Shown here one piece after another: positions 1 through 9,447 of a stretch of 64,000 nucleotides of DNA (its first letter is position 1; each line of letters opens with the position of its first letter). Below the pieces are notes generated by a model. The model ran no database searches and was not told the DNA's origin. It saw only the letters and a list, made by a program, of their open reading frames with translations. Both the position numbers and the translations under genes were made by a program. The stretch lies in contig OZ245015.1 of assembly GCA_965223705.1 (NCBI GenBank), positions 32,001 to 96,000 on the forward strand. Direction: 5' to 3'. This DNA is from Myxococcota bacterium. Its GTDB lineage: Bacteria; Myxococcota_A; UBA9160; UBA6930.

Positions 1-505
1 TTGTTCCGGAACCTCCTTCCGAACCGATCCAGAGGAGGGCGAAGACACCGGCCGCCACCCAACCGACGTAGGCGACCATGACGTCGGCCGCGAGGATCAA
101 CAAGAGAACCGCGGACGTTTCCGCCAGAACGAAAAGCGTCAGGCGGCGCCCCTGATCTCCGGGCAACGTGCGTGCCGCGAAGCAGCTGACGACCGCCGCC
201 GACGCCAGCGCGAGCGACGTAAGGCCCGCGACCGGATCGAAACGCAGACTCATCTCGGCAGAGAAGCGGACCGATTCGAACCACGTAAAGAGAGGTGGGT
301 CGTGCACGATCCGCTCTCCGGGGAGCGAGAACGTCAAGTACCAACCCGCTAGAGCGAGGATCCCGAAGACGCCTCCGGAAACCGCGACTCCGAAGTGAGC
401 GGCGTAAGCTTTGCTCACGACGGGTTGCTTCCCGGCGACTCCCAACGCCCCGACGAACGGCAATACAATCGCAACGTAGAGGAGGACGAACTCAGAACCT
501 ACCAT
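1..505 (-). CDS. nuoL: Divergent NADH-quinone oxidoreductase subunit L (NuoL)-like membrane protein, N-terminal part, runs off window start
   Basis: Hand translation from ATG 505: MVGSEFVLLYVAIVLPFVGAL...LFTWFESVRFSAEMSLRFDPVAG...LILAADVMVAYVGWVAAGV. This follows the NuoL pattern (LP..GA, FTW, L.FDPLS, L..A.N....F.GWE..G). The start overlaps the nuoK stop (ATGGTAG). Not in the ORF track because it has no stop in the window. Confidence 0.75.
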   Translation of the reverse strand, partial: MVGSEFVLLYVAIVLPFVGALGVAGKQPVVSKAYAAHFGVAVSGGVFGILALAGWYLTFSLPGERIVHDPPLFTWFESVRFSAEMSLRFDPVAGLTSLALASAAVVSCFAARTLPGDQGRRLTLFVLAETSAVLLLILAADVMVAYVGWVAAGVFALLWIGSEGGSGT

Positions 506-801
506 CGCAAACGACTCGCGGATTCGAGATCGGCAGAGCCGCGCGCGCGAACCCACGCCGCGATCAGAGCCGTCGCCACGGGAAGTTCGAGCACCGCGAT
601 CACGACGACCAGAGTGGCCAAGCCGAGAGAAGAACCGGAGCTCTCCCAACGAGAGGCGTAGCCGACGAGAGCCAGAACGATTCCACCCGTTGTCAACTGG
701 ACCGACATCCATGCGATCCAGACGTTGCGCCGGAGCAGTGCTCCCCCGATCCCGAGTCCGATCAGCAAGGCTGCGACGGCCAACGTGTGAGAAAGAGGCA
801 C
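499..801 (-). CDS. nuoK: Divergent NuoK-like protein (100 aa)
   Basis: GTG 801 overlaps the nuoJ stop (TAGTG). MPLSHTLAVAALLIGLGIGGALLRRN..MSVQL...ELPVA...LRW matches NuoK length, the LRRN motif and the C-terminus. Confidence 0.85.
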   Translation of the reverse strand: MPLSHTLAVAALLIGLGIGGALLRRNVWIAWMSVQLTTGGIVLALVGYASRWESSGSSLGLATLVVVIAVLELPVATALIAAWVRARGSADLESASRLRW

Positions 802-1262
802 TACGAATCCCGTCGCGCGCTGTCTTGCAGCGCGCTGACGGCGACGAAGGCCGCAGTGACCAGACAGGAACAAGCTCCGAGGGCGAGAAGGAGATCGCTA
901 TCGAGGACCGGGTCGGACCTGCCCCGGCTCGGAGCGCGCAGTGCGATGCCCACGACCGCGGCGGTCCCGAACGCCACGACCCCGGCGCCGATCGCCCGGG
1001 CGACGCGTCGCCCGGGCCGCGCTCTCGGCGCGACCTCCTCGGCACCGATCGTGGCGACCATCAGGAGGAGACAAGCGCAGGAGTACGCGACGAGATGGAC
1101 AACGCCCACAAGTGCTGCGCCCGACAAGAGATACAAGCCCGCGAGCGCGACCATCGAGAGCCACAGGCGGGATGCGGCGCGCGCGGGGCTCTGCGCGAGA
1201 ACGACTCCGACGCCGCCCAACAACGCAGCCGCTGCGAGCCCGTAGGGCAGCCACGCCATCAT
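801..1262 (-). CDS. nuoJ: Divergent NuoJ-like protein
   Basis: ATG 1262 overlaps the nuoH stop (ATGA). VVLAQSPARAA..L..SMVALAGLYLLSGA..VGVVHLVAY resembles NuoJ TM1-3. It lies between nuoH and nuoK. Confidence 0.75.
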   Translation of the reverse strand: MMAWLPYGLAAAALLGGVGVVLAQSPARAASRLWLSMVALAGLYLLSGAALVGVVHLVAYSCACLLLMVATIGAEEVAPRARPGRRVARAIGAGVVAFGTAAVVGIALRAPSRGRSDPVLDSDLLLALGACSCLVTAAFVAVSALQDSARRDS

Positions 1263-2275
1263 GCGGACGAGACCCACCAAGCGGTCCCCAGCGCGTTCAG
1301 AAACGCCAAGGGGATCACGGCCAACTCGACGCGCCCGAAGAACGGCGTCGATCGAGGAGCGGGAAGCACCGCTTCCGCGACGAAAAAGGCACTCATCACG
1401 ACCAAGGTTTTCGCGACAAATGCGCTCACGTGGATCACGGCGCAAATCGCAGTGCCGAGCCCGGTCCCCAGGAAGGACGCGGCTTCGATGATATGCGCCT
1501 GATCCGCGTACGGTACGGACCACGCCCCCATGTACAACGTGACGATCCAGGCCGCGATCAGGGGGCGCCACAGCAAACGCGTCGCGCGCGTCAGCTCGCC
1601 GTAGGGCCCCGACCGACCGTCCGGCACGTAGCTGCCGAAGAGCCGACACACGGTCAACGCGACAGCGACAAACAGCAAGCAGCCGATGGGTTGCAGCACG
1701 ATTCCCCAAGCGGGGAGCGGCGGGAGCGCGTCGGCGATCCGGATGACCCGATCCTGCGCGGCGGCGATTGCGGCCAGGCGCGTAGAGCCGAAGGCGATCG
1801 CAGTGCCCGCCACAATGAGGGTCCAAGCGGCGGCCGCCGCCAGCGAGAAGACCGAGCGGCCGGAGACCTTGAGCGAGCCCGCGGCGACCCAAGCAGTCGC
1901 CGTCGCGCCGGCCACCAGTACGAGTAGGCTGCCGGGGAGATCCGAAAGCGTGAGTTGGACCGTACCGACGCCAAAGCTATAAGCGCCACCGAACGGCAGC
2001 AGGGCGAACAAGGACGTCGCCCCCACAAAGCCCGCGGCAACGCCGAATCGCGAAGTGCCGCTGTGGTCGTACCCGCGCGTGTCGCTCTTCGCGGCGGCCT
2101 TCACCACGTCGGCGATCGGACGAAGGAGCCCGAACATCCGCGCGGTCGATAGCTCGATCCGATCCGGCAGCACGCGTCCTTCGACGAGCGCCGGGACCTT
2201 CCGAGAAAGCCAAGCCGCGCAGGGAAGGAAGAAGCCCAACACGACCAGGACCAAAACGATCGACGGCCCGATCAC
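1259..2275 (-). CDS. nuoH: Divergent NuoH-like protein
   Basis: RK.PA...R..PDR, GLLRPIADVVK...K.D, LPFG, WGIVLQPIG and GAWSVPY are recognisable NuoH segments. 338 aa, multiple TM helices. Confidence 0.85.
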   Translation of the reverse strand: MIGPSIVLVLVVLGFFLPCAAWLSRKVPALVEGRVLPDRIELSTARMFGLLRPIADVVKAAAKSDTRGYDHSGTSRFGVAAGFVGATSLFALLPFGGAYSFGVGTVQLTLSDLPGSLLVLVAGATATAWVAAGSLKVSGRSVFSLAAAAAWTLIVAGTAIAFGSTRLAAIAAAQDRVIRIADALPPLPAWGIVLQPIGCLLFVAVALTVCRLFGSYVPDGRSGPYGELTRATRLLWRPLIAAWIVTLYMGAWSVPYADQAHIIEAASFLGTGLGTAICAVIHVSAFVAKTLVVMSAFFVAEAVLPAPRSTPFFGRVELAVIPLAFLNALGTAWWVSSA

Positions 2276-2631
2276 GGACCCTCGGTCGTGGTTCGCGGGG
2301 GTACCCGACGGCGAGACGCGTATACGAAGCCGAGGAACCCGGGGATTCCGAGGGCCATCAACGCAGGCGTCGCCGAGCCGATCCGCGAAAGAGGCGCGAC
2401 CACGACCAACAAGAGGGCCGCCCCGACGACGAGTGTGAACAGAAGTGGAGTCGTCAACGCTGCGGAAGTCGCGGGCGGCTCCAAAGCCTCGTGGCGGCGC
2501 TCGGTGCGGGGGCCCGCCACGGGCCGTCGCCGACGCAGGGCAAGAAGGAACAACGCGGTTGCAACGCTCGCCGTCGCGACGAAGGTCGCAAAGGACGCGA
2601 GCTCACCGCGGGTGGCGAGCACTTCGGGCAT
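2272..2631 (-). CDS. nuoA: Divergent NuoA-like protein
   Basis: 119 aa, 3 hydrophobic segments. RHEALEP sits where NuoA has YECGF.P and LGFVYASRR where it has .GF.Y.W.K. GTGA overlap with nuoH. Confidence 0.6.
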   Translation of the reverse strand: MPEVLATRGELASFATFVATASVATALFLLALRRRRPVAGPRTERRHEALEPPATSAALTTPLLFTLVVGAALLLVVVAPLSRIGSATPALMALGIPGFLGFVYASRRRVPPRTTTEGP

Positions 2632-2749
2632 ACCGTGCGCTAACCCCCCGTTAGAGCAGCGGAAACGCGGCGAACCTAGCCAGCGCTCGGAACGCCGTCA
2701 AGAAAAGGCGAAGCCGAGAAAAGGCGCACGCGCGGTGTAGACTCGGATC

Positions 2750-3754
2750 ATGGCCACTCCGATCGCGGTGCTCGGTGCGGGGAGCTTCGGGACGTGTCTC
2801 GCGATGCTCTGCGCGCGAAAACACGACGTGCTGTTGTGGGCTCGCGATCCGGAAGTTGCGAAATCGATCAACGAAACGCGTCACAACCCGCGCTACTTGA
2901 CCGACGTCGCGTTGCCGACGGGCGTGCGCGCGACCTCGAGCATCGAAGAGGCGCTCGAGGGGCGCGAGCTCGTCGTGGTCTCGGTCCCGAGTCACGGCGT
3001 GCGCTCGGTGATGACGAAAGCCCACACCTACCTCGATGAAAACGCGGTTCTGGTTCTGACGTCGAAAGGCATCGAAGTCGACACGGGCCTCACGATGGAT
3101 CGGGTCTTGCGCGAAGTGCTGGATCCGATTTTCCATCCGCGCATCGTCTCGCTCTCGGGCCCGTCCTTCGCGCGCGAGATCGCCGAGGAACGACCCACAG
3201 CGGTGACCCTGGCGAGCTACGACGAGACCTACGCCATCTCCGTGCAGGCGGAAATCTCCTGCCCGTGGTTCCGGTGCTACTCCCATGACGACGTGATCGG
3301 CGTCGAGATCGGGGGCGCGATGAAGAACGTCATCGCCATCGCCGTCGGCATGTGTGATGGACTCGGGCTGGGTTTGAACGCGCGCGCGGCGCTGATGACG
3401 CGGGGCTTGCGAGAAATGACGCGGCTGGGGGAGCGCCTCGGGGCGAATCCGCTGACTTTTCAGGGCCTCTCGGGAATGGGGGATCTCCTGCTCACCTGCA
3501 CCGGGGACCTGTCTCGAAACCGAAGTGTCGGACTCGAGCTCGGCCGCGGACGGAGCTTGGCGGACATCACGTCGGGGATGAACCAAGTCGCGGAGGGCGT
3601 GCGCACCACGAGCGCGGTGTGCCGGCTGGCGGACCAACTGGAAGTGGACATGCCGATTGCTCAAGCCGTACGCCTCGTGATCGAGGGACGCGCGAATGCC
3701 ACGGAAGCCGGCGGCATCCTCATGAGCCGACAGTTGCGCGCTGAACTCGACTGA
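2750..3754 (+). CDS. gpsA: NAD(P)H-dependent glycerol-3-phosphate dehydrogenase
   Basis: GAGSFG Rossmann motif, SKGIE, SGPSFA, GGAMKNVIAIA, GDLLLTC, SRN, AEG. Confidence 0.97.
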   Translation: MATPIAVLGAGSFGTCLAMLCARKHDVLLWARDPEVAKSINETRHNPRYLTDVALPTGVRATSSIEEALEGRELVVVSVPSHGVRSVMTKAHTYLDENAVLVLTSKGIEVDTGLTMDRVLREVLDPIFHPRIVSLSGPSFAREIAEERPTAVTLASYDETYAISVQAEISCPWFRCYSHDDVIGVEIGGAMKNVIAIAVGMCDGLGLGLNARAALMTRGLREMTRLGERLGANPLTFQGLSGMGDLLLTCTGDLSRNRSVGLELGRGRSLADITSGMNQVAEGVRTTSAVCRLADQLEVDMPIAQAVRLVIEGRANATEAGGILMSRQLRAELD

Positions 3755-3843: not shown

Positions 3844-4107
3844 ATGAGCCGACCCGATGCGCGTGCGAACCTCGCGGCCCTTCGCCCGGGCGATGCCGCG
3901 ACGGTCACCGAAGTCGTCGCGGACGGTCCCATCGCGCAGCGCCTCTGTGACCTGGGGTTCTTGCCGGGCACCGAGGTGGCGTTGCTGCGGCGCGCGCCGC
4001 TGGGGGACCCACTGTGCTTCTCCGTTCGCGGGACCGAGCTCTGCCTGCGCGGGAGCGAAGCGGCACAGGTCCTCGTCGCACCGGCGGGGTCCGCGAAGCT
4101 CTCGTGA
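3844..4107 (+). CDS. feoA: Ferrous iron transport protein A
   Basis: RL.DLGFLPG..V...RRAPLGDP....VRG..L.LR..EA. Confidence 0.95.
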   Translation: MSRPDARANLAALRPGDAATVTEVVADGPIAQRLCDLGFLPGTEVALLRRAPLGDPLCFSVRGTELCLRGSEAAQVLVAPAGSAKLS

Positions 4108-5984
4108 CCGCCGCCGCCCTTCGACTGGGCCTCCTCGGCGCGCCCAACTCCGGCAAGACCACCCTCTTCAACGCACTGACCGGTCTTCGCGCAAAAGTCG
4201 CGAACTACCCGGGAGTGACGGTCGAGCACCGCGAAGCCACCCTCGCGCTCGGAGATCGGACCGCCACCCTGATCGACCTGCCGGGGACCTACAGCTTGTC
4301 GCCCGTGTCCGCCGACGAGGCAGTCGTCTCCGATCTGCTGGCCGGACGTCTTTCGGGCAGCGCTCCGCCGGACGCGCTGGTGATCACGGCCGATGCGTGC
4401 AGCCTCGAACGCGGGGTGCTCTTCATCTCCCAGGCGCTGCGACTCGGTCTCCCGACGTGTCTGGTCCTTACGATGATCGACGAGCTCAGCGCTCGCGGGG
4501 GTCACATCGCACCGGAGGCGCTCGAAGTCGCACTCGGCATCCCGGTCGTGGGTGTCGTCGGGACCCGCGGCGTCGGACTCGATCGCCTGCGCGGTCTCTT
4601 GGATCGGCCGGAGGCGTGGCCGCGACCGGTCATCCGCCCTCCCGAGTCGGGTCCCGAACGCGACGGTTGGGGTCAATCCGTCCTCGGGCGCGGGGAATGG
4701 CGCGCCCCGGAGCCGCATCGCCCGTCCCGCCAAATCGATGCGGTTCTACTTCACCCGGTTTGGGGTCTTCTGATCTTCCTCGGCGTCATGCTGTTCTTCT
4801 TCCAGACCATCTTCGCCTGGGCCGCCCCGGCCATGGACGGGATCGACGGTGCGATCGGCGCCGCCGCCTCGGCGGTTCGCGGCGGACTTCCAGAAGGCGC
4901 GTTCGCGGACTTCCTCGCCGACGGCGTCATTGCCGGTGTCGGCTCCGTCGTGATCTTCCTGCCCCAGATCGTTCTGTTGTTCGCCCTGCTCACATTTCTC
5001 GAGGGCCTCGGCTACATGGCACGCGCGGCTTTTGTCGTCGATCGGGCGATGGCGCGGGTCGGGCTCGAAGGCCGCGCGTTCGTCGCCCTGCTGAGCTCCT
5101 ACGCGTGTGCAGTCCCCGGCATCATGGCCACGCGGACGGTCCCCTCTGCGCGGCTCCGCTTGGTCACCATCCTCGTCGCGCCGCTGATGACGTGCTCGGC
5201 CAGACTTCCCGTGTACGCACTCCTCATCGGAGCCTTCGTCCCCGCGACGGCCCACGTCGGCCCGCTCGGCGCCCAGGGACTTGCGCTGTTCGGGCTCTAT
5301 CTGCTGGGCGGTGTCGCCGCACTGGTCGCCGCACTCGTGTTGCGGCGCACCGTCGGGAAGGGCGAGGGCCTTCCCTTCTATCTCGAGTTGCCGTCCTACC
5401 GTTGGCCGCAGCCGCGCGTCGTCGCTTTGCAGGTGTGGGACCGGGCGAAGAGTTTCTTGAAGCGCGCCGGCACGATCATCCTGGCGGCTGCGATCGTCCT
5501 TTGGGTCCTACTGAACTTCCCGCGACAAGAGGGAGCGCCCGGCGTCGCGCCGGAGGAAGTCGCGCGGCATGCGATCGAAAACAGTTACGCGGGGCGGCTC
5601 GGGCATGCGATCGAACCTTGGATCGCACCCCTCGGTTTTGACTGGAAGATCGGCGTGGGCTTGGTTGCGAGTCTCGCCGCCAGGGAAGTGATCGTCGCGA
5701 CACTCGCGCAGATCTACGCGGTCTCCGATGCGGAAGAACGCTCCCTGCGAGACGCGGTGCGCAACGATCGCGATCCAGAAACGGGCGCTCCGGTCTTCAC
5801 GACCGCGACGGTGGCGTCGCTCCTCGTCTTTTTTGTGTTCGCGCTGCAGTGCACGTCCACGATTGCTGTAATCGCTCGAGAAACCCAGTCGTGGCGTTGG
5901 CCCGCCTTCGCCTTTGGCTACCTCTTGGTGCTGGCATATGCTGCAAGCTTCATCACGTATCGAGTCACCCTTGCAATCACGTAG
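4104..5984 (+). CDS. feoB: Ferrous iron transport protein B
   Basis: GTG overlaps the feoA stop. G motifs GAPNSGKT, NYPGVT, DLPG; membrane motifs FLPQI, GYMARAAF, CAVPG, CSARLPVY. Confidence 0.97.
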   Translation: MTAAALRLGLLGAPNSGKTTLFNALTGLRAKVANYPGVTVEHREATLALGDRTATLIDLPGTYSLSPVSADEAVVSDLLAGRLSGSAPPDALVITADACSLERGVLFISQALRLGLPTCLVLTMIDELSARGGHIAPEALEVALGIPVVGVVGTRGVGLDRLRGLLDRPEAWPRPVIRPPESGPERDGWGQSVLGRGEWRAPEPHRPSRQIDAVLLHPVWGLLIFLGVMLFFFQTIFAWAAPAMDGIDGAIGAAASAVRGGLPEGAFADFLADGVIAGVGSVVIFLPQIVLLFALLTFLEGLGYMARAAFVVDRAMARVGLEGRAFVALLSSYACAVPGIMATRTVPSARLRLVTILVAPLMTCSARLPVYALLIGAFVPATAHVGPLGAQGLALFGLYLLGGVAALVAALVLRRTVGKGEGLPFYLELPSYRWPQPRVVALQVWDRAKSFLKRAGTIILAAAIVLWVLLNFPRQEGAPGVAPEEVARHAIENSYAGRLGHAIEPWIAPLGFDWKIGVGLVASLAAREVIVATLAQIYAVSDAEERSLRDAVRNDRDPETGAPVFTTATVASLLVFFVFALQCTSTIAVIARETQSWRWPAFAFGYLLVLAYAASFITYRVTLAIT

Positions 5985-7323: not shown

Positions 7324-7848
7324 CTACAACAATCGGTCGTCGCTCGGTGAGGCCCCTTCCATCGCGAGGAGACGCCGCTTGAGCGGAAGACCGCCCCCAA
7401 AACCGCCGAGCTTTCCGCCGGCGGCGACAACTCGGTGACACGGAATCACCAACGGCAGCGGGTTCGCGCCGCTAGCTGCTCCGACCGCCCGCATCGCGCC
7501 GGGCTTTCCGATCGAGGAAGCGATTTCCCCGTAGGTCCGGGTCGCACCGTAGGGAATGGCTCGAAGCGCCGACCAGACTTCCCGCTGGAAGACCGTGCCG
7601 TAGAGCTCGAACTCGAGCTCGAAACCGTGGCGCTTGCCTTCCAGGAACTCCTGCACCTGGCGAATTGCGCCCCGATTGTGCGCATAGCCCTCTTCGATCG
7701 GCGCCGACGCCAAGTGCTGCGCGACGAACCCCTGGAAACCGCGCCCCGAGGCGCGAGGCAGACCGAGATAGATGAGTTTTCCGCAACAGCTCGCGGCCAA
7801 CATGCCGCCTTCCGATGTTTCGAAACGAGCCGTGTGGACGATCTCCAT
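7324..7848 (-). CDS. ogt: Methylated-DNA--protein-cysteine S-methyltransferase
   Basis: GT.FQ..VW..L..IPYG.T.TYG, RAVG.A...NP, active-site PCHRV. Confidence 0.95.
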   Translation of the reverse strand: MEIVHTARFETSEGGMLAASCCGKLIYLGLPRASGRGFQGFVAQHLASAPIEEGYAHNRGAIRQVQEFLEGKRHGFELEFELYGTVFQREVWSALRAIPYGATRTYGEIASSIGKPGAMRAVGAASGANPLPLVIPCHRVVAAGGKLGGFGGGLPLKRRLLAMEGASPSDDRLL

Positions 7849-8955: not shown

Positions 8956-9447
8956 CTAGCGACGTGCGCGAGCGCGCGTCGTCTTTCGCCGGGCCGTGGT
9001 CGTCTTCCGCCGCGCGGTCTTCTTGCGCGCCGTAGCCTTCTTGCGCGTGGTCTTCTTGCGGGCGGTCGCCTTCTTTCGCGTCGCCTTCTTGCGACCGGTC
9101 GCTCGACGCGCGGTCTTCTTCCTCGCGGGCTTGCGGGTCGTCTTCTTGCGCGTGGTCTTCTTGCGCGCCGTGCTCTTGCGCCGCGTCGCCTTCTTGCGCG
9201 TCGCTTTCTTCCGACCCGTCCCGCGTCGCGCCATCTTCGTGCGCGCTACGTCACCGTCTTTGTCGATGAAGTAGAGCCAGCCCTCTTCGCGTTCGACTCC
9301 CGCCTTGGCGACGACTTCGCGTCGGCCTCGGCCGGGCTTCCCGCCTCCGCGCGCCATCGGCGCTCGACTCACGTGACCCTTCTTGTCGAGGTAATAGAGC
9401 CAACCCTTGGCTCGTCGGACACCGGTTTTCGCAACCTTTGTGGCCAT
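8956..9447 (-). CDS. Histone-H1-like basic protein with duplicated N-terminal domain (putative nucleoid-associated protein)
   Basis: Two repeats of VAK.GV.R..GWLY..DK.G.V.R..MAR.G followed by about 85 aa of RKKAT/RKKTT repeats; GAGGAG RBS. Confidence 0.8.
   Translation of the reverse strand: MATKVAKTGVRRAKGWLYYLDKKGHVSRAPMARGGGKPGRGRREVVAKAGVEREEGWLYFIDKDGDVARTKMARRGTGRKKATRKKATRRKSTARKKTTRKKTTRKPARKKTARRATGRKKATRKKATARKKTTRKKATARKKTARRKTTTARRKTTRARARR

Follow-up and report, generated by a model that had tools for sequence, protein, structure and literature searches.

The DNA analyzed here, called the window below, is a stretch of 64,000 nucleotides from a Myxococcota bacterium (Myxococcota_A; UBA9160; UBA6930; assembly GCA_965223705.1). 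It covers positions 32001-96000 of contig OZ245015.1 (C1 of genome G000), and its first 2,631 positions carry the initial part of an operon for the membrane arm of respiratory complex I. The genome amounts to 4.56 Mb in 2 contigs at a completeness of 95%, leaving ~5% possibly missing. The operon comprises seven genes in 7.0 kb, namely an A-like open reading frame (ORF) followed by nuoH, nuoJ, nuoK, nuoL, nuoM, and nuoN, and runs past the window edge (Table 1). A first, sequence-only reading had described five ORFs in the order A-H-J-K-L; they lie on the minus strand, and the four junctions (GTGA, ATGA, TAGTG, and ATGGTAG) were found as described. Since each of the six frames of this stretch (GC content 65-69%) contains long open frames that arise by chance, it is homology that decides whether such ORFs are genes. 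A consensus scan of the locus for promoters and terminators returned chance-level counts, with 1 promoter-like site, situated outside the gap between the operon and gpsA, compared to 0.6 expected.

Table 1. Features of the membrane-arm locus and of related genes elsewhere in the genome (plain positions refer to the window, C1 positions to the contig).
Feature	Position	Strand	Basis and remarks
A-like ORF, 119 aa	2272..2631	-	First operon gene, in nuoA position; stop overlaps the nuoH GTG start (GTGA)
NuoH/ND1 homologue, divergent, 338 aa	1259..2275	-	PF00146, alignment, predicted fold
NuoJ homologue, divergent, 153 aa	801..1262	-	PF00499, alignment
NuoK homologue, divergent, 101 aa	499..804	-	PF00420, alignment
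NuoL homologue, N-terminal 168 codons	1..505	-	Rest beyond window; whole gene C1:30691-32505, 604 aa
NuoM, 526 aa	C1:29114-30694		Outside window; after NuoL with GTGA overlap; PF00361
NuoN, 506 aa	C1:27591-29111		Outside window; after NuoM; PF00361
Intergenic gap, 118 bp	2632..2749		Between arm operon and divergent gpsA; promoter presumed
gpsA-like gene	2750..3754	+	Synteny anchor; tblastn, next to arm in relatives
NuoB, NuoI-C-D, single copies	C1:1.41 Mb		Outside window; neighboring genes are lpd, lipB, a lipoyl-E2, and a DUF1285 gene
NuoD	C1:1417033-1418133		Part of the preceding entry
NuoE-F fusion, aldehyde:ferredoxin oxidoreductase-like ORF (named by eye), NuoG-like gene	C1:482980-488452		Outside window

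Family Membership of the Arm Subunits

NuoH matches PF00146 at 56.2 bits (cut-off 27), NuoK matches PF00420 at 40 bits (cut-off 26.1), and NuoL, NuoM, and NuoN match PF00361 at 70, 89.1, and 147 bits, respectively (cut-off 21.5); the family match of NuoJ to PF00499 is marginal (35.4 bits, cut-off 33.2). The three PF00361 scores are the lowest of complete genes among the arms of this bacterial family, and the NCBIfam equivalog cut-offs are missed widely (31.8 vs. 305 bits for NuoH). An AlphaFold2 model of NuoH reached a predicted local distance difference test score (pLDDT) of 90.4 and a predicted template modeling score (pTM) of 0.91; its input was a 75-row alignment of canonical NuoH proteins, of proteins stripped of the charged residues discussed below, and of intermediate ones. 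Foldseek placed NdhA, ND1, and NuoH chains at the top of the PDB matches to this model (TM-score 0.61-0.76), so that NuoH belongs to its family by sequence as well as by the ND1 fold of 8-9 transmembrane helices (TM). Judged by homology, the H, J, K, L, M, and N ORFs are genuine genes rather than chance frames.

For the A-like ORF the agreement with NuoA is confined to position, length, and hydrophobicity (grand average of hydropathy, GRAVY, 0.5). The NuoA family PF00507 was not matched anywhere in the genome at E<=1, a custom NuoA hidden Markov model built from 5 sequences gave no match at E<=100 among 42,794 genome ORFs, and tblastn with canonical NuoA yielded no match at this ORF. The stripped locus of the related genome G006 carries a recognizable NuoA at the same position. 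The first reading had reported the loss of the NuoA residues D79/E81 and of the YECG motif; these motifs are indeed absent, while the alignment of the ORF to NuoA is statistically unsupported.

The Arm as the Sole and Orthologous Copy

PF00146 is matched at a single locus of the genome and PF00361 by three genes, and every one of these matches lies in this operon. The arm operon of canonical relatives has the order A-E-F-G-H-J-K-L-M-N, with F and G lying between A and H in 5/5 loci and E in 4/5, whereas here the A-like ORF overlaps nuoH directly and nuoEFG are absent from the operon. Of the 10 loci searched in relatives, 9 (5/5 canonical and 4/4 other stripped ones) have a gpsA gene, at a tblastn identity of 61-73%, as the divergent upstream neighbor of the arm, and the gene downstream of nuoN is also common to the relatives' loci. 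The shared gpsA and downstream gene, together with the single copy, imply that the arm represents the ancestral operon minus nuoEFG and that there is no second copy. On this combination of synteny and copy number, the arm is the in situ orthologue of the relatives' canonical operon.

A paralogue residing beside a canonical set is thereby ruled out, and with it one half of the earlier suggestion of a paralogue under relaxed selection. The other half, relaxed selection with the frames kept, fits the divergence rates, the single-frame alignments, and the rough substitution ratios given below. The repurposed membrane complex that the first reading had offered as its other option (e.g., a scaffold or dock) is a possible role of the arm. 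The first reading had also named the lack of a second, canonical set in the genome as an outcome that would speak against it, and no such set was found; the substitutions it had pointed out stand nonetheless.

Two observations concern the same genes in relatives. Besides a full operon on its contig C16, genome G012 has another nuoH of canonical appearance, which immediately follows a nuoB at ~9084-10867 of C20 (L019), and no J-N genes were detected downstream of this cluster with E. coli queries. In the canonical sister genus g11 (L240 and L241, from G022 and G012), the best gpsA match is only 45-46% identical, compared to 61-75% for the other members of the family, and the gpsA-nuo neighborhood may not be conserved in this genus.

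Loss of the Charged Residues of the Proton Path

The arm proteins were aligned by MAFFT L-INS-i with the nuo proteins of E. coli K-12 (NC_000913) and of 5-6 canonical relatives of the same family/order; residues are given in E. coli numbering. Out of 38 key charged positions, 27 are replaced and 11 are kept (H 3/14, K 1/2, L 2/9, M 1/6, N 4/7), in comparison to 37-38 kept in each canonical relative. According to PMC8357420, Glu157 of NuoH and Asp79 of NuoA are invariant and J-Glu55, K-Glu36, K-Glu72, and N-Glu133 form a chain. PMC9271201 describes the ion pairs N E133/K217, M E144/K234, and L D178/K229, the central residues N K247 and M K265, as well as M H322, and the distal residues N K395, M E407, and L K399/D400.

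Of the 14 positions scored in the quinone cavity and E-channel of NuoH (E36, R37, E71, D72, R148, E157, D213, E216, E218, E220, E228, R293, D295, and K303), only R37, D72, and R293 remain, whereas the six canonical relatives keep 13-14. E36 and E71 are both replaced by Ser (the latter turning KED into KSD), the protein is shorter around E157 and has Ala there, the acidic TM5-6 loop (PFDxPEGESE...YHxEYSG) is replaced by a sequence 11 residues shorter, and RPRYDQ has become APRSTP. NuoK shows E36Q and retains E72. NuoL has lost K229 and carries E144V, H338F, K342F, K399R, and D400G, with D178 and H334 kept; NuoM carries K234R, K265L, H322S, H348Y, and E407K, with E144 kept; and NuoN carries K247R, K295T, and K395R, with E133, E154, K217, and H305 kept. 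The full set of residues expected of a functional antiporter-like subunit, i.e., the Glu of TM5 with the Lys of TM7, the central Lys/His, and the Lys (L, N) or Glu (M) of TM12, is found in none of the three.

The alignments reproduce every substitution in H, K, and L that the sequence-only reading had named by eye (E36S, KED to KSD, E157, and the TM5-6 loop in H; E36Q in K; E144V in L), and with E. coli as well as canonical relatives included the acids are truly lost and not shifted by misalignment. Its proposal to inspect L, M, and N beyond the window for the Glu/Lys axis led to the same picture, with most of these residues replaced. Since few of the residues of the cavity, the E-channel, and the Lys/Glu axis remain, it appears very unlikely that the arm is a canonical redox-driven proton pump, and the earlier statement that it is not a working proton pump is well supported by the summed losses.

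Accelerated Divergence and Remaining Constraint

Global identities of the proteins to those of the canonical relatives G014 and G009 were compared with the identities between these two relatives (Table 2). E. coli NuoH, at 41%, is nearer to the canonical relatives than the NuoH of the present genome. The DUF1285 neighbor of the NuoB/I/C/D genes shows no acceleration, and RpoB is 76-88% identical to its counterparts in relatives. Given the values for gpsA, RpoB, and the DUF1285 protein, the acceleration is specific to complex I, and it is strongest in the arm, whose proteins diverged several-fold faster than the products of neighboring genes.

Table 2. Global protein identities to canonical relatives G014 and G009, and between these two.
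Protein	Present genome vs. relatives	Between relatives
NuoH	31-32%	74.5%
NuoJ	35-36%	67%
NuoK	34-36%	70%
NuoL	31%	65%
NuoM	36-37%	67%
NuoN	39-41%	60%
NuoD	50-52%	80%
NuoI	40-49%	73%
NuoC	44-47%	68%
DUF1285 neighbor	56-60%	58%

At E<=1e-3, a HMMER search with NuoH against 1.84 billion cluster representatives retrieved only 111 proteins; the two closest of them, P0003 (48% identity) and P0004 (40%), are stripped as well. Closer relatives with available DNA did not emerge: alignment-pattern scans of genome and metagenome contigs with the present NuoH, P0003, and P0004 gave loci of at most 30% identity only, and a word-indexed NuoH search returned the protein itself and one 26% match.

Despite this divergence, each of the canonical H-N proteins can be aligned over its whole length to one frame of the operon DNA, without any high-scoring segment pair in an alternative frame that would point to a compensated frameshift. 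There are no internal stops, frameshifts, or truncations by which a pseudogene would be recognized, and all insertions and deletions relative to the canonical proteins are in frame. Hydropathy is as in canonical proteins (GRAVY 0.77-1.0), in contrast to the strongly hydrophilic translations of the two remaining frames, and the GC content at third codon positions (GC3) is 0.71-0.82, compared to 0.81 in gpsA. Among 44 stripped NuoH proteins with an overall identity of ~25-30%, residues P94, Q174, W190, G191, P196, G250, P255, K289, P322, and N327 (numbering of the present protein) are 90-100% conserved; in the 75-row alignment, P94 and Q174 do not vary at all, and conservation reaches 90% or more at seven others. 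Between the stripped congeners G006 and G015, nonsynonymous and synonymous divergence (dN and dS) amount to 0.70 and 1.49 for NuoH, and to 0.12 and 1.21 for gpsA. The present arm compared with G009 yields dN/dS ratios of 0.5-0.6, against 0.17 for gpsA; all of these are rough Nei-Gojobori values obtained near saturation in a GC3-biased genome, which can be read as relaxed but below neutral and not further. With all seven frames, the translational-coupling overlaps, the hydropathy, and a core of fold-determining residues intact, sequence comparison suggests that the arm is under relaxed but below-neutral selection and is not a dead pseudogene.

Of the runs considered as a source of population variation, the three with a low share contained nothing but short fragments identical to the window, and the one with a high share gave no usable variants in the operon. 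A short conserved stretch of gpsA at ~3155-3530 (L196 8155-8530) is covered by a pile-up of many metagenome contigs from other organisms, with many third-position differences and loose ends; this pile-up is cross-mapping of a conserved gene and not strain variation.

The Remaining Complex I Genes and Other Respiratory Enzymes

As noted in the first reading, nuoB, nuoC, nuoD, and nuoI are not part of the arm operon. Such a split is normal for the lineage, in which the nuoD loci lie away from the arm in 7/7 relatives, with nuoI and nuoC beside nuoD in all seven and the DUF1285 gene in 6/7. The cofactor ligands of this quinone-reducing module (Q-module) are kept: the four N2 Cys of NuoB, the eight Cys of NuoI, which bind clusters N6a/b, and the His and Tyr of NuoD are all present. 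NuoD retains its C-terminal GECDR and lacks 22 residues, at about positions 300-327 of the E. coli D-part, that are present in all five aligned relatives.

The only genes resembling nuoE, nuoF, and nuoG form the cluster at C1:483-488 kb, so that no NADH-oxidizing module (N-module) is encoded with the complex. This cluster looks like a separate NAD-linked enzyme rather than the missing N-module. Further enzymes of the genome include a haem-copper oxidase resembling CyoB (37.5% identity, E 1.5e-100), a haem O synthase, SdhA/B, and 2-oxoglutarate dehydrogenase, as well as two flavoproteins with Ndh as best E. coli match. Since NCBIfam assigned the latter two only to generic pyridine nucleotide-disulfide oxidoreductase models, they are no more than candidates for NDH-2. 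With a haem-copper oxidase, SdhAB, and Ndh-like flavoproteins present, respiration without a pumping complex I is plausible.

Stripped and Deleted Arms in the Same Family

Among the 33 genomes of the family, four others carry a stripped arm at the same locus and without nuoEFG, namely G006 and G015 (genus g5), G008 (g7), and G016 (g6). At E36 of NuoK three of them read Gln and one Val, E144 of NuoL is Gln in 4/4, and position 144 of NuoM is Gln in 2/2. G016 additionally lacks NuoH. NuoD (PF00346) was detected in none of these four genomes and was present in the canonical control G017, i.e., in 1 of the 5 genomes searched (completeness 85-91%). In G002, which belongs to the same genus as the present genome, and in G007, gpsA directly adjoins a homologue of the gene beyond nuoN, the whole operon having been cleanly excised; the RpoB of G002 is 87.7% identical to that of the present genome (partial, 810 residues recovered). 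G001 is uninformative in this respect as its contig ends at the locus, and no PF00361 genes were found in G001, G002, or G007.

The phylogenies of arm and chromosome disagree. In a NuoH tree of 87 rows, the 44 stripped and 13 intermediate proteins fall into one clade without a canonical member beside the family's canonical NuoH, with a support of 97 in the Shimodaira-Hasegawa approximate likelihood-ratio test (SH-aLRT), and a concatenate of K, L, M, and N under LG+C20 joins the present genome with G006 and G016 at 100/100. The RpoB tree of 20 genomes places the present genus beside a canonical genus (SH-aLRT 99), with g5 and g6 together and G008 located elsewhere, so that at least two branches force separate changes; the gpsA tree is similar. 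End branches in the arm tree measure 0.8-2.1 vs. 0.2-0.46, and the present arm proteins are no nearer to the stripped ones of G006 than to canonical ones. The simplest reconciliation is long-branch attraction acting on independently accelerated lineages, although the stripped operons may also be alike through shared descent or lateral replacement. Full-text literature searches turned up no paper on stripped complex I arms in myxobacteria.

A Probable Non-pumping Relic and Its Alternatives

We favor, as the probable if far from assured explanation, that the only arm of this genome is a degenerate, non-pumping relic of the ancestral nuo arm which is still under residual selection and stands late in a series of losses. 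In such a series, an ancestral 14-gene complex I would have lost nuoEFG from the gpsA-flanked operon, and the arm would have ceased to act as a redox-driven proton pump. Its proteins would still be made and kept by weaker purifying selection at the level of the fold. In this genome, the arm may well still hold the fast-evolving NuoB/I/C/D module, which has been retained, at the membrane; the module would then either pass electrons on to quinone with no proton pumping or have little effect at all. The present state would be a late stage of a series that ends in clean deletion, as in G002.

Several points weigh against this explanation. Selection on the arm is seen indirectly, given that the nearest NuoH relative is 48% identical; the ratios relative to G009, rough and near saturation as they are, indicate weak constraint. 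The putative docking of the Q-module on the arm is called into question by the 22-residue deletion in NuoD and by the low identity of this protein to relatives (Table 2), and as the other stripped genomes lack NuoD, anchoring of this module cannot be the general reason for the persistence of stripped arms. Furthermore, according to PMC9271201, E407K in NuoM alone leaves E. coli complex I pumping at a lower H+/e- stoichiometry. The case against pumping therefore depends on the summed losses, and no single residue proves inactivity.

It is unlikely that the operon is simply decaying neutrally, as a functionless set of genes in which a disrupting mutation or deletion is still to come. The clean loss of the operon in G002 and G007, the loss of NuoH in G016, and the loss of N- and Q-modules in other stripped genomes would all agree with such decay, as would the high dN/dS ratios (0.86 for NuoH between G017 and G008, besides those of the present arm) and the ease with which long frames arise by chance at this GC content. 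Neutral decay fits poorly, however, with ~60-70% of residues replaced over 7 kb without one frameshift, with start/stop overlaps intact and only in-frame indels, and with a canonical hydropathy confined to the coding frame. Nor would it be expected to spare the core residues shared by the 44 stripped NuoH representatives, or to leave nonsynonymous below synonymous differences per site (pN < pS) between two stripped congeners. With comparable reservation we regard the possibility that the arm has become a new, long-lived module with a fold-dependent and redox-independent task, such as a respiratory scaffold or a passive or differently gated conduit, which it would share with the other stripped arms by descent or by lateral replacement at this locus. 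This improbable alternative draws on the common clades of stripped proteins, on the lack of NuoD in the other stripped genomes (4/4), on the persistence of the conserved core, and on the recurrent exchange of Glu for Gln at K-36 (here and in 3/4 others), L-144 (4/4 others), and M-144 (2/2 others). It is countered by the RpoB tree, which separates the stripped genera and leaves the arm clade open to long-branch attraction, by the lack of any special proximity to the arm of G006, and by the deletion of the operon in sister genomes; moreover, no new conserved polar residues stand out and no new partner gene has joined the operon.

That the arm is still an ion pump, operating with another set of residues or another coupling ion, seems highly improbable. 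The residues kept in N (E133, E154, K217, and H305), M (E144), K (E72), and L (D178 and H334) and the intact cofactor ligands of the Q-module would speak for such a pump. Yet the coupling path is gone at both ends, with E36, E71, E157, and the acidic TM5-6 loop lost from H, both motifs from NuoA, and E36 from K, and neither L nor M retains any of its central or distal Lys/Glu, Arg having taken the place of several. Lysines in or near hydrophobic segments have become fewer and have not been relocated (2 in L vs. 4-11 by a crude, coarse count). Beyond the relic status of the present arm, a more far-reaching claim would be that seven-subunit arms which have lost the NADH and quinone modules are more than wreckage and are retained in several Myxococcota lineages, as dozens of 50%-identity clusters, in the form of fold-dependent non-pumping modules with a task of their own (scaffold or anchor in the respiratory membrane). 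The present genome would then represent an intermediate to which the Q-module is still attached; we consider this claim doubtful.

Comparison With Known Systems

With canonical NDH-1 in its split Myxococcota form, the operon has in common the locus, gene order, and orientation, the Pfam families of H-N, the predicted NuoH fold, and also the lpd/E2/lipB/DUF1285 context of the Q-module genes; it differs in the absence of nuoEFG, in the 27 replaced charges, and in a NuoA that is unrecognizable by sequence. A second comparison is with 11-subunit complex I relatives without NuoEFG, such as the NDH-1 of cyanobacteria and plastids (PMC3144371). The subunits of the present genome, an A-like one plus B-D and H-N, match this inventory, with no dedicated N-module in the nuo loci. 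The 11-subunit enzymes are working pumps that keep the E-channel and the Lys/Glu axis, neither of which the present arm keeps. In contrast to these relatives, the absence of E, F, and G in the present genome is, by synteny, a recent deletion from a 14-gene ancestor. Mrp antiporters and the MBH/MBX modules share PF00361 subunits and a NuoK/MrpC-like subunit with the arm, but here NuoH and NuoJ homologues, the nuo gene order, and the nuo locus are found and the antiport Lys/Glu are replaced too. The NuoH and NuoJ homologues and nuo synteny thus rule out an Mrp antiporter operon.

As a rule, bacteria either have a conserved complex I or lack it altogether. In this family, a single syntenic locus displays a whole path that leads from the canonical 14-gene complex over an arm without N-module and with a fast-evolving Q-module (the present genome) to orphan stripped arms without Q-module, an arm without NuoH, and finally clean deletion. 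As the stripped stage outlasts the replacement of about two thirds of the residues without a broken frame, something besides proton pumping would have to constrain these proteins. If culturable, the organism or a relative would offer a natural complex with all pump residues mutated, in which the role of the arm in assembly, docking of the quinone module, and membrane organization could be studied. For annotation, a family match leading to the label "NADH-quinone oxidoreductase subunit H/L/M/N" can hide a protein that is not part of a pump.

Additional Features of the Window

Downstream of gpsA, positions 3844-5984 (+) hold putative FeoA/FeoB-like ferrous iron transporter genes, named by eye from their translations. 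A putative O6-alkylguanine-DNA methyltransferase-like ORF with a PCHRV motif, likewise recognized by eye, lies at 7324-7848 (-). An ORF of 163 aa at 8956-9447 (-) carries the repeat GWLY(Y/F)(L/I)DK.G.V.R twice in its N-terminal part and then a long and strongly basic tail of KKATRKKTT-type repeats; its product may resemble histone-H1/AlgP-like basic repeat proteins.

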